Shown one piece after another: positions 2,549 to 26,666 of a stretch of 27,150 bases of DNA (its first letter is position 1; each line of letters starts with the position of its first letter). The position numbers were made by a program, and so were the translations under genes. The stretch is from a virus: the UHGV virus genome UHGV-0189314. One strand, 5' to 3'. The notes below the pieces were generated by a model. It was given only the letters and a program-made list of their open reading frames with translations, was not told where the DNA came from and did not search any database.

Positions 2549-2878
2549 TAGACTGTGAGAGCAGAATATTTTGCTGAAAAATAAAAGACGCGTCGGCATC
2601 CGGAAAGCGTAGAGTTCTGCTACGTGTGCCAATTTTATCTTATTCATTCTAAATCTTGCCAAATCAAATGGAGCTTTGCTCAACTGCCCGGGTGGGAAGG
2701 GGCATTAAAACACGGGAAAATTATGTGGAAATCTACAGGAGTCAAGTTAATCACCGTATTGATTGACGGCAAACCACAATACTCACTTATTGAAATGAGC
2801 GGTCAGCATGCTTGTTTGGTTCGTGAGTAACAGGCATTACAGCAGTCCTCTCTCACTGAAGGGGGCTGCTGTAATGTG

Positions 2879-3085
2879 TTAGCTGTTTTTTATGAATCCG
2901 TTGACGACCCATCCGACAAATCTGAGAACACCATATATCAGCAAGGCACATGTCAGTGAAGTCAATATATCAAGCAGTGAGAAGCCTTGCGTATCTGTTG
3001 GTGAAAATAAAAGACCAAAGATGAACACCAGTGTAGCCAGCAGAATGCCCAGTCTATGGAACCCGTTCGAAATAGTGTTTTGCAT
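2879..3085 (-). CDS. Small two-TM membrane protein (68 aa) between lysis genes and cos; possible moron
   Basis: Minus-strand ORF with two hydrophobic helices (LGILLATLVFIFGLLF and LTSLTCALLIYGVLRFVGWVV). Occupies the position and orientation of bor in lambda, but has no lipobox. Confidence 0.35.
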   Translation of the reverse strand: MQNTISNGFHRLGILLATLVFIFGLLFSPTDTQGFSLLDILTSLTCALLIYGVLRFVGWVVNGFIKNS

Positions 3086-3255
3086 TTTTGTTTTCCGTAT
3101 CAGGTTGTAATGGTTTAGTTATTTTAGCATCTGGATAATGAGGTTCTAATCGTCTGGATATACCGGAAGCGATGGGGGGCGTTTGTTGAGTCTGATATTT
3201 ATTAAAATGATAACTTTTTCTCATTTTTACGGGTCCTTTCCAGAATCCGAAACAC

Positions 3256-3269
3256 CGGGGGTCGGTGGA
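3256..3269 (+). other. cosN-like cohesive-end site (approximate)
   Basis: GGGGGTCGGTGGA-CGCGCAAAAACG-CGCTATTTATGAGATTTTTT parallels lambda cosN and flank GGGCGGCGACCT-CGCGGGTTTT-CGCTATTTATGAAAATTTT (recalled). The CGCTATTTATGA block is identical, and the site lies ~220 bp upstream of the Nu1 start, as in lambda. Confidence 0.5.
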
Positions 3270-3309
3270 CGCGCAAAAACGCGCTATTTATGAGATTTTT
3301 TGAGGGGGT

Positions 3310-3455
3310 GGTTGTTGTTTAATTGTTTGTTATATCTCATTGATAAGTAAGAATAAACAGAAATAAATACAACAACCTGATGATGCTTTTTGATGTGATC
3401 GATGTATGAAATATAAATAAAATCAAATGGTTTCGTAAAAATACAAGGTTGTTGT
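3310..3455 (+). promoter_or_regulatory. cosB-like region with three copies of GGTTGTTGT (R-like terminase small-subunit binding repeats)
   Basis: GGTTGTTGT at 3310-3318 (+), its complement ACAACAACC at 3369-3377, and GGTTGTTGT at 3447-3455 (+); AT-rich spacers. Mirrors the lambda R3/R2/R1 layout between cosN and Nu1. Confidence 0.45.
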
Positions 3456-3487
3456 ATCGTTTTTTATCGATGGCTTATGGAGAGGAG

Positions 3488-3994
3488 ATGGCCTGTTTAT
3501 TGAATAAAAGCGATATGGCCTCCTCCATCGGTATATCCGTTCAGGCATTTGATAAATGGGGCGTTCCTCCTGTTGAGCGTCGGGGAAGGGAAGTTTTTTA
3601 TGATGTTAAAACCGTGCTGGAAATCGATCGCGAGCGACGACAGCACAATCAGAGAGCACCTGATGACGGGAGTGATCTGGAGGAAAGATTACTCCGGGCC
3701 AGAACTGAACTGACGGAAGAACAGGCCGTAGCTCAAAAACTTAAAAATCAGGTAACCGAAGGTAAGCTCATCGATTCAGAGTTCTGTGTTTTCGCCCTCA
3801 GCAAACTGGCGATGGCATTGTCCAGTACGCTTGATTCCATTCCTTTATCCATGCAGCGACAGTTCCCGGATTTAACCCCGCGTCATATTGATTATCTGAA
3901 AACCCTTATCGCAAAAGGAGCGAATCAGTGTGCGCGGGCAGGGGATAAATTGCCGGAGTTACTCGATGAATATATCCAGACAACAACTGAATAA
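3488..3994 (+). CDS. nu1: Terminase small subunit (lambda Nu1-like)
   Basis: RBS GGAGAGGAG then ATG at 3488. C-terminal FCVFALSKLAMALSSTLDSIPLSMQRQFPDLTPRHIDYLK...LPELLDEYIQ aligns with lambda Nu1 ...FCTFVLSRIAGEIASILDGLPLSVQRRFPELENRHVDFLK...IPGLLSEYIE (recalled). 3' end overlaps the A start, as in lambda. Confidence 0.85.
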   Translation: MACLLNKSDMASSIGISVQAFDKWGVPPVERRGREVFYDVKTVLEIDRERRQHNQRAPDDGSDLEERLLRARTELTEEQAVAQKLKNQVTEGKLIDSEFCVFALSKLAMALSSTLDSIPLSMQRQFPDLTPRHIDYLKTLIAKGANQCARAGDKLPELLDEYIQTTTE

Positions 3995-5882
3995 TATGAT
4001 GCTCGCCGTCACAACCGCATTACAGCCACTGATAAGGGCACTGCCGGTGACGCCGGTTGAGTGGGCTGATCAAAATTATTATCTGCCCAAAGAGTCGTCA
4101 TACGGTGAGGGGGAATGGAAAACCCTGCCGTTCCAGGTCGCCATCATGAACAGCATGGGTAATGACCGGATCCGTACTGTTAATCTGATTAAATCAGCGC
4201 GCGTGGGTTATACCAAAATGCTGTTGGGCGTGATCGGGTATTTTATTGAGCATAAATCCCGTAGCAGTCTGCTTTTTCAGCCGACAGATTCTGCAGCTGA
4301 AGATTTTATGAAAGCGCATGTGGAAGCTACATTGCGGGATGTTCCCTGCCTTAAAGCGTTGTCTCCATGGCTGGGCAAAAAACATCGTGACAACACGCTC
4401 ACTCTGAAGCGTTTTTCCTCCGGTGTGGGGTTCTGGTGCCTGGGCGGTGCCGCAGCTAAAAACTACCGTGAAAAATCTGTGGATGTGGTCTGCTATGACG
4501 AACTCTCCTCGTTTGAACCGGATGTGGAAAAAGAAGGCTCGCCGACGCTGCTTGGCGATAAACGTATCGAAGGCTCGGTATGGCCTAAATCCATACGCGG
4601 CTCAACGCCAAAAATTAAAGGCTCCTGCCAGATTGAGAAAGCCGCGAATGAATCTGCGCATTTCATGCGGTTTTATGTCCCTTGCCCTCATTGCGGGAAG
4701 GCCCAGTATCTGAAGTTTGGCGATGATGCGACGCCGTTTGGCCTGAAATGGGATAAGGGTAAACCGGAAACGGTGTATTACCTGTGTGAACATAATGGCT
4801 GTGTGATCCGGCAGTCGGAACTTGACCAGAGCGACGGACGCTGGATTTGTGACAATACCGGGATGTGGACGCGTGATGGCCTTACATTTTACAGCGCCGG
4901 TGATGAGGAGATACCGCCACCGCGCTCAGTCACGTACCACGTGTGGACAGCGTACAGTCCGTTCACCACCTGGGTGCAGATTATCTACGACTGGCTGGAT
5001 GCGCTGAAGGACCCGAACGGCGTCAAGACGTTTATTAATACCACGCTCGGGGAGCCCTATGAAGAGGCTGTGGCAGAAAAACTGAGCTTTGAGTTGTTGC
5101 TGGAAAAAGTCTGCCACTATGGTGCGCAGGTTCCCCTGCGGGTGGTTTACCTTACCGCCGGGATCGACTCCCAGAAAGATCGCTATGAAATTTATGTCTG
5201 GGGCTGGGCTCCCGGCGAAGAAGCCTTTCTGATTGATAAGCAAATTATCATGGGGCGACCGGAAGACGAGGACACCCTGAAACGTGTTGATACGGTGATC
5301 CGGAAAAAATACCGCCATGCTGACGGTACTGAAATTTCCATTTCCCGCGTCTGCTGGGATACCGGTGGTATCGACCAGGACATTGTGTATCAGCGTTCCA
5401 GAAAACACGGCACTTTTTTTGTGCTTCCCATAAAAGGGGCATCGGTGTACGGCAAGCCGGTGATCACCATGCCCAAAAAGCGCAACCAGCGTGGCGTGTT
5501 TCTGTGTGAGGTGGGTTCCGACACCGTCAAGGAAATGCTGTATGCCCGTTTTGCCCTGCCGGTGGTTCCTGCCAGTGAAGCCGCTCCGTATACCTTCCGT
5601 TTTCCGGATAACCCGGACATTTTTTCGGAAGAAGAAGCACGTCAAATCGTGGCGGAAGAACTGGTGGAAAAGGTGGTTAATGGCAGGGTGAAACTGCTGT
5701 GGGATAAAAAAGGGCGACGCAACGAAGCCCTCGACTGCCTGGTATATGCCTATGCTGCCCTGCGTATTTCAGTACAACGATGGCAACTGGACCTTGAGGC
5801 ACTGGCCAGGGCACGAAGAGACGAGCAGGATGAGGATGATATGAGTCTGGAAGAAATTGCGGCTGCACTGAGTGGAGGATAA
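3966..5882 (+). CDS. A: Terminase large subunit (lambda gpA-like)
   Basis: Near-colinear match to lambda gpA throughout (MNISRQQ..., EWADQNYYLPKES, WCLGGAAAKNYREKSVDVVCYDEL, YVPCPHCG, VYGKP, RRNEALDC). Start at ATG 3966, not the ORF-track 3930. Confidence 0.95.
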   Translation: MNISRQQLNNMMLAVTTALQPLIRALPVTPVEWADQNYYLPKESSYGEGEWKTLPFQVAIMNSMGNDRIRTVNLIKSARVGYTKMLLGVIGYFIEHKSRSSLLFQPTDSAAEDFMKAHVEATLRDVPCLKALSPWLGKKHRDNTLTLKRFSSGVGFWCLGGAAAKNYREKSVDVVCYDELSSFEPDVEKEGSPTLLGDKRIEGSVWPKSIRGSTPKIKGSCQIEKAANESAHFMRFYVPCPHCGKAQYLKFGDDATPFGLKWDKGKPETVYYLCEHNGCVIRQSELDQSDGRWICDNTGMWTRDGLTFYSAGDEEIPPPRSVTYHVWTAYSPFTTWVQIIYDWLDALKDPNGVKTFINTTLGEPYEEAVAEKLSFELLLEKVCHYGAQVPLRVVYLTAGIDSQKDRYEIYVWGWAPGEEAFLIDKQIIMGRPEDEDTLKRVDTVIRKKYRHADGTEISISRVCWDTGGIDQDIVYQRSRKHGTFFVLPIKGASVYGKPVITMPKKRNQRGVFLCEVGSDTVKEMLYARFALPVVPASEAAPYTFRFPDNPDIFSEEEARQIVAEELVEKVVNGRVKLLWDKKGRRNEALDCLVYAYAALRISVQRWQLDLEALARARRDEQDEDDMSLEEIAAALSGG

Positions 5883-25473: not shown

Positions 25474-25886
25474 GGATATTTATCGTCGCCAGCGGGACAG
25501 CGGGGGATGAAGCAAGAGCTTAATGACCTGGAGGATTTACGCTCAATCAGAGAGATGACGATTAGTAATTAGCAGTCAATTCTGGGCTTTTGGGTTGCAC
25601 GCTTTTCGCCCAGAATTGTGCGTCAATTATCCCAGAAAAAATTAATAAGTTACAATCAGGCAAAAAATTTCCTCTGCAAAACCAAAAAGATTTTAATATA
25701 ATCAATCGGTTAAAGGCGAAGGCGGCGCAGGCAAATGGTGCAAACAATCATCTAAAAATCTTGTTTTTTGCTTTAAATACAGTTTGTTATTATGTTTTTT
25801 GAGACTCTACCAGAGTGACAACATACGCCCGCTACGGTTTTGCGGGCGTAAGATAATTAAGAATTTTATATGTATTATAATTAACT

Positions 25887-26666
25887 TTATATAAGAGTGT
25901 TTTGCAGCCAGTTTTTTATCGTTATATTGACTTCCTTTGCGTGAGTAATATTTAGAGCATGATTAGCGTCGGGAATGACTTCAAGCTTAGAATGTGCAAT
26001 CATTTTGTGCATTTGAATTGCTTTCTCCAAAGATATCCCCGTATCTCTGGCACCATGAATAATCAGGGTGGGGGTTGTGATTATCTGGATTCTTTCTGAA
26101 ATGTCGTCGCGCTCCAGCATTGCATTCATGGCATTTCTGATGTTTTCAGGCTTATGGCCTAGCCATACTTGTCTCCATGTCTCTGCTTCAGAAATATTAT
26201 TTCCGAAAAAAACGGGTAATAATGAGGAAATTATATTTTCCTTTATGATTGGGTCTTGCCATCCATCACATAACTCCATGTAACTGGAAGCGATTTCTGG
26301 CGGATCCTGCTCTGCCTGAGTTGCCATAAGGATTAACCCTGATAAACGTTCCGAATGTGAAAGAGCAAATCGTAAAGATATATATCCGCCCATTGACATC
26401 CCCCCTAAAACAAACTTATCTAGTTGTAGTAAGTCTGCAACCATTAAAATATCATCGACGATATCATAGAGCGAGAATGCTTCTGTTTTTTCACTGTTTT
26501 TATCAAACCCCCGAACATTAATACAAACAACTCTGTGTTTTTCTTTTAGTTCGTCAAGCTGATATTTAAACATTTCATTATTCATGAAAAATCCATGAAC
26601 GAATATTACAGGGGGATTGTTTTTATTTGTTTCAGTGTATCCAGAATCAGTAAACGTAAAATTCAT
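25887..26666 (-). CDS. Alpha/beta-hydrolase-fold protein (esterase/lipase-type serine hydrolase), low-GC cargo gene
   Basis: HGFF oxyanion-hole motif, nucleophile elbow GGMSMGG (G-x-S-x-G), acidic residue in HGARDTG, and His in DANHALN in the canonical order Ser-Asp-His. RBS GGAGGG upstream of the minus-strand ATG. Strongly AT-rich codon usage unlike the phage structural genes. Confidence 0.8.
   Translation of the reverse strand: MNFTFTDSGYTETNKNNPPVIFVHGFFMNNEMFKYQLDELKEKHRVVCINVRGFDKNSEKTEAFSLYDIVDDILMVADLLQLDKFVLGGMSMGGYISLRFALSHSERLSGLILMATQAEQDPPEIASSYMELCDGWQDPIIKENIISSLLPVFFGNNISEAETWRQVWLGHKPENIRNAMNAMLERDDISERIQIITTPTLIIHGARDTGISLEKAIQMHKMIAHSKLEVIPDANHALNITHAKEVNITIKNWLQNTLI

Follow-up and report, generated by a model that had tools for sequence, protein, structure and literature searches.

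The virus genome UHGV-0189314, analysed here as one stretch of 27,150 nucleotides (nt; hereafter the window), carries on its minus strand, between the lysis genes and the cos-like region, an open reading frame (ORF) for a predicted inner-membrane protein of 68 amino acids (2879-3085, with an ATG start and the TAA stop codon, 2881-2879, included). A preliminary description of this DNA, made without database searches, had implied a minus-strand ORF of this length with two hydrophobic segments, placed between lysis genes and cos, and both points hold: the ORF is present, with the GH108 endolysin gene (1459-2025) on one side and the cos-like core and the small terminase gene (3449-3994) on the other. 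The window is prophage DNA, identical (100%, over the region tested) to the chromosome of Escherichia coli Sx181-0-1. In the following, we argue that the ORF is a gene, that it probably travels in a small optional cassette with a predicted promoter of its own, and that the conspicuous hairpin bounding this cassette has a history separate from it.

A conserved minus-strand gene

The initial protein search with the 68-residue ORF returned a single near-identical cluster. A sensitive DNA search added 11 E. coli genomes whose copies are 71-75% identical at the nucleotide level; there the Prokaryotic Genome Annotation Pipeline (PGAP) calls hypothetical proteins, with translations 57-75% identical to the window protein. 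In the window and in seven relatives (L003-L009), minus frame 0 alone is free of stops, each of the other five frames containing at least one stop per locus. Pairwise ratios of nonsynonymous to synonymous substitution (dN/dS) lie between 0.12 and 0.29 and the differences fall mostly on third positions (15, 6 and 31 at codon positions 1, 2 and 3 between the window ORF and L004), while one difference among relatives is an in-frame deletion of exactly two codons. A check for absence or frameshift in close relatives found the ORF intact in all near-identical copies as well as in the relatives with 57-75% identity, with the signature of purifying selection throughout. Two further copies are informative as decay products: that of L007 is cut by a prophage deletion adjoining hyaA, and that of L008 is shortened to 58 amino acids with loss of the GWxxxGF motif. 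On this comparative sequence evidence we regard the 68-residue ORF with high confidence as a real gene under purifying selection. An overlapping plus-strand ORF (2892-3110) was also considered as a gene and rejected, its frame containing one to three stops in each locus checked.

Predicted topology and conserved motifs of the protein

Kyte-Doolittle profiles (15-residue windows) peak at 2.79 over residues 12-26 and at 2.17 over residues 40-54, and AlphaFold2, run on a 12-sequence alignment, returns a helical hairpin (helices 2-26 and 37-67; mean predicted local distance difference test score, pLDDT, 78.8). The predicted layout consists of a cytoplasmic N-terminus (residues 1-11, with the GFHRLG motif), a first transmembrane segment (TM1, ~12-27), a periplasmic loop (28-34, SPTDTQG), a second transmembrane segment (TM2, ~35-54) and a cytoplasmic, amphipathic tail (55-68, with the RFVGWVVNGF motif). 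The tail, RFVGWVVNGFIKNS, contains just two basic residues; the sole cysteine, C46, lies within TM2, and there is no lipobox. Over 28 family members, the average sequence has 3.1 Lys and Arg residues in the N-terminus and 1.8 in the C-terminus; the loop has 0.29, together with 1.1 Asp and Glu, so that by the positive-inside rule both ends would be cytoplasmic and only some seven residues would face the periplasm.

Conservation is concentrated in two short motifs, (S/H)xGFHRxG just before TM1 and YxxxRxxGW(V/I)xxGF just after TM2, represented in the window protein by GFHRLG (residues 8-13) and YGVLRFVGWVVNGF (residues 51-64). H10, G13, Y51 and W59 are invariant among the 28 aligned members, F9, R11 and R55 nearly so. 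Both motifs are beyond what transmembrane composition explains, and the predicted topology would put the conserved surface at the cytoplasmic face of the membrane.

Expression signals and the limits of the cassette

The window and the diverged copies are homologous from the hairpin (2835) to about 3147. Within this stretch, about 35 nt upstream of the ATG, lies the extended -10 element TGCTAAAAT (TGn + TAAAAT; 3129-3121, minus strand). The motif GATGnTAAAAT is kept at a fixed distance from the ATG in eight loci whose proteins are 57-99% identical (alignments A4 and A7): the TG and TA.AAT positions are invariant, while n varies and the flanking bases drift. A weak -35-like hexamer, TTAGAA (3144-3149, minus strand), is found 17 nt upstream of the -10 element and matches TTGACA at three of six positions; its surroundings, TAGAAC(T/C)TCA, are conserved in relatives, and in the loci with an HNH gene the hexamer overlaps the HNH start codon. 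The preliminary description had proposed a promoter search of 3086-3250. A generic scan of this interval was negative, missing the element because its -35 is poor, and the promoter call is made instead from conservation. We infer a sigma-70 extended -10 promoter of the ORF, with transcription probably starting near 3114.

The ribosome-binding region ATACGGAG is conserved in the eight diverged loci. Relatives carry ACGGAGGACAAATG or ACGGAGAACAAATG as ribosome-binding site and the window lineage ACGGAAAACAAAAATG, in which a weakened Shine-Dalgarno sequence (GGA in GGAAAA; 3094-3096, minus strand) precedes the ATG by 8 nt. On the downstream side, the nearest canonical-looking intrinsic terminator on the minus strand (2601-2576) is situated 280 nt further on and comprises a weak 6-bp stem, with two G-U pairs, followed by TTTATTTTT. 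It is not conserved in relatives without the ORF (alignment A6) and is a candidate for the real end of the minus-strand transcript.

Morons, in the definition of Juhala and Hendrix, are add-on DNA with their own promoter and terminator and an atypical G+C content (PMC3594210). The preliminary description had placed such a moron here, in the slot where lambda carries bor, and the layout is borne out by the segment being optional, by its own conserved extended -10 element and by its lower G+C content (41.3%, against 51.5% in the window and 52% in the flanking endolysin and large terminase genes), the whole intergenic region being AT-rich as well. The most direct comparison is offered by L012, which possesses the same GH108 endolysin and Nu1-type packaging genes: its slot holds about 370 bp of unrelated, ORF-poor DNA, and homology to the window resumes at the cos-like core (~3222-3296, plus strand), the right-hand boundary of the variable slot. 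The cassette itself is found with Nu1/A-type as well as with HNH+P27-type packaging modules, the latter in HK97-like prophages, and only some of the loci sharing the hairpin carry the ORF (14 of 89, see below). We consider it likely that 2835-3149 is a self-contained, autonomous moron cassette encoding a predicted inner-membrane protein.

The slot between lysis genes and cos is a hot spot for minus-strand cargo. In E. coli A10 (L008 3225-4155; NZ_CP028764.1) the hairpin is followed by a minus-strand gene for a lipopolysaccharide core heptose(II)-phosphate phosphatase. Further, E. coli O8:H8 16F5M1D1 (L009 1020-2165; NZ_AP019856.1) contains a cassette copy 97.8% identical to that of the window, in a prophage which carries the genes of the LT-II heat-labile enterotoxin, A and B, between its holin and endolysin genes.

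The protein family and its distribution

An exhaustive profile search collected 155 representative proteins at E<=1e-3, mostly 65-78 amino acids long and matching from end to end. We define the family by a length of about 65-78 amino acids, two transmembrane helices and the motifs (S/H)xGFHRxG and YxxxRxxGW(V/I)xxGF, all of which are found in the window protein. Across the family the periplasmic loop can be as short as about 5 or as long as about 110 residues, and the unit is sometimes fused to a DUF2569 or an OB-fold domain. Sub-threshold matches to DUF5957 (E 0.025) and to an MnhF-like model (E 0.009) are driven by transmembrane composition, and Pfam offers nothing else for the window protein at E<=1; in PADLOC, the window protein and two of its relatives (P0010 and P0011) are without a match at E<=1, and a sequence-profile search of the PDB gave a best E of 0.13. 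Literature searches yielded no description of an FHRxG/GWxxxGF family, which is thus an undescribed family of proteins with two transmembrane helices.

Members tend to occupy comparable places in otherwise different elements. A profile scan of genome contigs with the close alignment recovered only Citrobacter braakii; P0010 and P0011, from E. coli and Citrobacter, occupy the same opposite-strand position in front of HNH-terminase genes. Three distant members (P0051, P0165 and P0163, 28-36% identical) are again encoded on the opposite strand, with lysis genes to one side and packaging genes to the other, in unrelated prophages: P0051 has a Phage_holin_2_1/lysozyme cassette on one side and a Mu-F/DUF4055-type head module on the other, P0165 is flanked by a holin_2_1/lysozyme cassette and by GpA-type terminases, and P0163 by a GH19/holin_3_7 cassette and an HNH-terminase module. 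A promoter-like site precedes both P0165 and P0163 at a distance of 40-70 nt, and in both a hairpin follows soon after the stop codon. Outside prophages, the 72-residue member P0161 (L013 6001-6219; NZ_OP242271.1, NZ_OP242220.1) is located on conjugative E. coli plasmids of 150 kb, where it has a chaperone-usher fimbrial operon on one side and transposase genes on the other, and is unannotated in PLSDB; another member is encoded on a Rep3 plasmid with AraC-type regulators, and others in elements bearing ParA and RHH genes. From these sequence contexts the family appears to be mobile-element cargo, usually a solitary gene, repeatedly placed for expression under prophage repression, and its occurrence on both prophages and plasmids is as expected of cargo whose usefulness lies in the resident state of the element.

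Two further, distant members, P0162 and P0168 (L025 5523-7651; L126 4843-8540), are preceded by a small ORF overlapping the gene start by 4 nt and followed by a SWIB-domain gene and, further on, by ParA and an RHH antitoxin-like gene, a neighbourhood that looks like a plasmid or phage-plasmid maintenance region.

The junction hairpin

At the 3' end of the gene, the preliminary description had reported an 11-bp perfect inverted repeat with a 20-nt loop and had taken it for a plausible bidirectional terminator. The arms, CATTACAGCAG (2835-2845) and CTGCTGTAATG (2866-2876), are indeed exact base by base; the loop of 20 nt did not stand, as the stem extends inward, and the repeat tool describes the junction hairpin (2835-2876) with arms of 17 nt and a loop of 8 nt. 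Across the whole 27-kb window, just three other close inverted repeats reach 11 nt or more. Plus-strand RNA forms an 18-bp stem with G-U pairs (-30.7 kcal/mol, z -6.4); the minus-strand fold is weaker (-21.2 kcal/mol, z -4.3), because the G-U pairs of the plus strand become A-C mismatches.

The hairpin belongs to a conserved element of 325 bp (2553-2877), which recurs at 85-86% identity in about 184 E. coli genomes, all of them lacking the minus-strand ORF, and the shared stretch stops exactly at the 3' end of the hairpin. A plus-strand ORF of 35 amino acids (2723-2830; phrog_8025, E 2.3e-15) lies at the 3' end of the element. In L009, homology to the window starts just before the hairpin, behind a different upstream gene. 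The hairpin is preceded by GAGTAACAGG, in which the upstream plus-strand ORF, whichever it is, has its stop codon. Hairpin and GAGTAACAGG together are therefore the seam common to different left-hand and right-hand modules.

A pattern search over viral contigs and the collected loci (L001-L111) yielded 98 copies of the hairpin, about 85% of which are quasi-palindromes with a fixed 2x2 CA/GA internal mismatch. In 13 copies, the window included, a change in the 3' arm makes the palindrome perfect; L006 arrived at a perfect one by the complementary change on the 5' side. Either templated repair of the palindrome or selection for pairing would account for this. Where enough downstream sequence was available (89 copies), a family ORF follows the hairpin in 14 and is missing in 75. 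A count of pairs gave 89% pairing, with 9 of 15 pairs never varying; covariation in the hairpin is not significant because the stem is mostly invariant, and the one-sided changes are C-to-U, which keeps G-U pairs on the plus strand only.

Whether the hairpin is a bidirectional intrinsic terminator bounding the cassette deserves a closer look. It is located between convergent stop codons, 4 nt from that of the plus-strand ORF and 2 nt from that of the minus-strand ORF, its folding is significantly stronger, on either strand, than that of shuffled sequence, a T6 run follows 10 nt downstream on the plus strand, and a hairpin shortly past the stop codon recurs in distant family members (L021, L027). 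However, neither strand has a U-tract within 2 nt of the stem, and the structure is missing from the calls of the terminator scan. Its sequence is conserved in the ~184 genomes and the 75 of 89 loci that are without the ORF, the first packaging gene of that late operon often comes right after it, both its greater stability and its tolerated variants favour the plus strand, and the fixed mismatch of most copies is more reminiscent of a processing or stabilising hairpin, or of a recombination boundary. The role of terminator, as first proposed, is in our opinion rather doubtful. Instead, we conclude from the pattern of conservation that the hairpin is in all likelihood a pre-existing, conserved boundary element of the lysis module, rather than a terminator belonging to the cassette. 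Most plausibly it either serves the late mRNA of the plus strand, which it would stabilise at the 3' end or offer for RNase III-type processing, or is a recombination linker; at most incidentally it may also cap the moron mRNA. In Rfam the hairpin had no match, the only hit being an irrelevant sub-threshold sar match at 2122-2225.

At the same 85-86% identity, the 325-bp element is also present in one deposited phage record, 'Actinobacillus phage vB_Apl-pPE4'. The element is left without any annotation by PGAP. Its leader of about 170 nt upstream of the 35-residue ORF is more conserved than the ORF itself, suggesting a regulatory or RNA function of the leader. A phage deposited as infecting Actinobacillus pleuropneumoniae (L001, PP818812.1) has a lysis-packaging junction, hairpin included, about 86% identical to that of E. 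coli prophages, which is either an odd host assignment or a recent transfer.

Proposed role and alternative explanations

In the scheme that we favour, the extended -10 promoter would transcribe the ORF independently of the late promoter, so that the protein could be made in the repressed lysogen, whereas in lytic growth antiterminated late transcription would run antisense through the cassette and should silence it. The 68-residue protein would span the inner membrane twice, leaving both ends in the cytoplasm and about seven residues in the periplasm, its two conserved motifs would form a working surface at the cytoplasmic face, and it might protect the lysogen at the inner membrane, for example by keeping the DNA of superinfecting phages out of the cell. 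We estimate a probability of roughly 0.55 for this account taken as a whole.

Several observations weigh against this account. The close form of the ORF is rare (17 of 5426 complete E. coli genomes), and PGAP places no annotation on it in the six closest complete genomes; that it annotates the diverged copies but not these is probably explained by the weakened ribosome-binding site of the window lineage, which also suggests that the window copy is translated more weakly and may be translated poorly. The -35 hexamer is poor, the promoter motif occurs twice in the window against 1.04 expected, which alone is not significant, and the terminator scan found no canonical terminator directly after the ORF. 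In tblastn searches with the window protein and two distant members, no match was obtained in deposited phage genomes, where the low-complexity filter may hide transmembrane proteins. Exclusion in particular is faced with further difficulties. Neither the window protein nor the 28 members match any family model in Pfam, PHROGs, NCBIfam or PADLOC, and Foldseek searches with the AlphaFold2 model gave nothing below E 0.26 in BFVD or below E 1.1 in the PDB, a bare helical hairpin being uninformative for structure searches. The cassette is found in prophages with contractile and with HK97-like tails, and there is consequently no obvious cognate target. Finally, the predicted positions of the conserved residues are all cytoplasmic, not periplasmic, where an incoming tail tip would be met.

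A role in exclusion or protection of the lysogen, by analogy with HK97 gp15, P22 SieA and T4 Imm, is nevertheless our favoured, if tentative, guess. Held with still more reserve is the idea that we are dealing with a new, unnamed family of mobile-element proteins, widespread, repeatedly captured by lambdoid prophages in the lysis-cos slot and carried by plasmids as well, which represents a class of exclusion or defence absent from PADLOC, Pfam and PHROGs and working by a new mechanism at the cytoplasmic face of the inner membrane; it would, for example, bind a host inner-membrane machine and so block entry of foreign DNA or modulate envelope physiology.

A membrane-damaging toxin, be it of the addiction, abortive-infection or type I-like kind (compare Hok/Gef and GhoT), which kills or arrests the cell when de-repressed, seems unlikely. 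The protein is small and hydrophobic and resides on prophages and plasmids as hok-type loci do; TM2 is fairly polar (S36, D39, T42, S43, T45 and C46) and less hydrophobic than TM1 (2.17 versus 2.79), and the weakened ribosome-binding site of the window lineage could reflect selection for a lower dose. Most copies, however, combine the conserved promoter with a strong GGAGG ribosome-binding site without any neighbouring antitoxin, no plus-strand promoter for an antisense RNA is predicted in or beside the ORF, and the 5' leader of about 29 nt is unlike the long, structured leader of hok-type loci. Furthermore, the conserved positions form specific interface motifs and not bulk hydrophobicity, the fusions to DUF2569 and OB-fold domains and loops of up to ~110 residues would be unusual for pore-forming peptides, and Pfam gives no match to Hok, GhoT, Ldr or TisB.

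Even less probable is a part in lysis, as an antiholin, a holin-like protein or a safety catch against a leaky holin. Size and layout do match class II holins and pinholins such as S21-68, and members adjoin lysis cassettes in at least four prophage lineages. Against this, the gene stands on the opposite strand, outside the late operon and with its own predicted sigma-70-type promoter; the neighbouring holins differ (Phage_holin_8 and Phage_holin_3_7 here, Phage_holin_2_1 elsewhere), plasmid members have no lysis genes nearby, and the protein has neither a Pfam holin match nor the highly charged C-terminal tail of holins. Given that the slot also holds unrelated cargo, for instance the phosphatase gene of L008, a permissive insertion site accounts better for the position.

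The weakest alternative, a chance open frame in AT-rich intergenic DNA, could draw on the silence of PGAP in the closest genomes, the weak ribosome-binding site and the single cluster of the initial protein search, and is largely refuted by the low dN/dS in a frame that alone is conserved, by the annotated diverged homologues and by a large wider family with invariant motifs, which makes it very improbable. The remaining probability belongs to a function captured by none of these analogies.

Neighbouring features of the prophage

The left end of the prophage carries a tRNA-Gly. Two holin genes named after Pfam families (Phage_holin_8, 818-1210, and Phage_holin_3_7, 1200-1478) precede the GH108 endolysin gene, which is followed by small ORFs and then by the region of the minus-strand ORF. 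To its right, the Nu1-type small terminase gene is succeeded by a GpA-type large terminase gene (3930-5882) and, further on, by lambda-type head genes and a contractile tail. The cos-like core region matches the nu1 region of phage SerU-LTIIb, and TTTACGGGTCCTTTCC...GCTATTTATGA within it resembles lambda cos.

No canonical Rz/Rz1 pair follows the endolysin gene; two small plus-strand ORFs are found instead, one of 37 amino acids with a C-terminal transmembrane helix (2251-2364) and one of 51-60 amino acids with a lipobox (LLVGC; 2366-2548; phrog_7528, E 1e-37, and NCBIfam spanin2 only at E 0.018). From their sequences, these could constitute an unusual spanin-like pair. A terminator-like hairpin on the plus strand (2415-2450; 11-bp stem and TTTTTAT) lies inside the lipoprotein ORF, over the region coding for the signal peptide. 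At the far end of the window, just past the last ORF of the tail-fibre region, there is an inverted repeat (25566-25629; 22-nt arms, 77% complementary, 20-nt spacer) followed by a minus-strand gene for an alpha/beta-hydrolase (25887-26666), and the region 25566-26666 is probably the prophage-host junction.

Implications

The immediate consequence concerns annotation: a conserved and selected gene is absent from the RefSeq annotation of the closest genomes, and its family is without a model in Pfam, PHROGs, NCBIfam and PADLOC. If the protein is protective, a very small factor would be added to the exclusion systems encoded by prophages, and 155 or more clusters of orphan membrane proteins, from prophages as well as plasmids and including elements of enterotoxigenic E. 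coli, would gain a function. The junction hairpin, in turn, marks the exact seam of exchange between lysis and packaging modules in roughly 190 E. coli prophages and offers a convenient handle on late-mRNA processing or modular recombination. Current understanding is not overturned by these findings, small membrane-protein morons being expected in the lysis-cos slot; what is new is the undescribed protein family.

Comparison with known systems

The junction hairpin is best compared with the linker sequences between lambdoid modules and with the 3' hairpins processed by RNase III, such as lambda sib and the T7 R1.1 sites. With these it shares the position exactly at a module joint, the long stem, the internal loop and the lack of a U-tract, the difference being that it has no match in Rfam.

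As regards the protein, Hok/Gef and GhoT resemble it in being small, hydrophobic and carried by plasmids and prophages, and GhoT also in its two transmembrane helices. The differences comprise the lack of a predicted antisense RNA locus (no plus-strand promoter is called in 2835-3150, though sequence alone cannot prove such an RNA absent), the lack of a long structured leader and of any Rfam or Pfam toxin match, the interface motifs and the domain fusions, and we do not assign it to the type I toxin-antitoxin systems. Class II holins and pinholins, for example S21-68 of phage 21, have 68 amino acids, two transmembrane helices and both ends in the cytoplasm, so that length, number of helices, predicted topology and the nearby endolysin gene agree with the window protein. 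The opposite strand, the own predicted promoter, the lack of a highly charged tail and the occurrence of members on plasmids do not, the prophage already possesses two holin genes, and none of the 28 family members matches a Pfam holin model, which places the family outside the holins.

Among phage-borne conversion and exclusion genes, lambda bor (and borD of DLP12) occupies the same slot between Rz and cos, before the small terminase gene and antisense to the late operon. It is a conversion gene expressed in the lysogen, and a like logic of independent transcription is predicted for the gene described here. Bor, however, is an outer-membrane lipoprotein of ~97 amino acids with a lipobox, as opposed to a predicted inner-membrane hairpin of two helices without one, and the Pfam Lambda_Bor model does not match the window protein. 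Models for exclusion and anti-phage proteins (PADLOC-DB; Imm_superinfect, SieB and YebO in Pfam) gave no match either. T4 Imm, which has two predicted transmembrane helices, and P22 SieA are likewise small or membrane-embedded proteins that block entry of phage DNA at the cytoplasmic membrane; SieA is much larger, and Imm is an early protein of a virulent phage. The closest model for the proposed function is HK97 gp15, a YebO-like small inner-membrane moron protein for which superinfection exclusion has been demonstrated (PMC3594210). Its slot lies within the tail genes and on the same strand, and the window protein is no YebO homologue by Pfam, but both are encoded by optional cassettes within a lambdoid late operon, with an own promoter in the case of gp15 and a predicted one here, and both have homologues outside phages.

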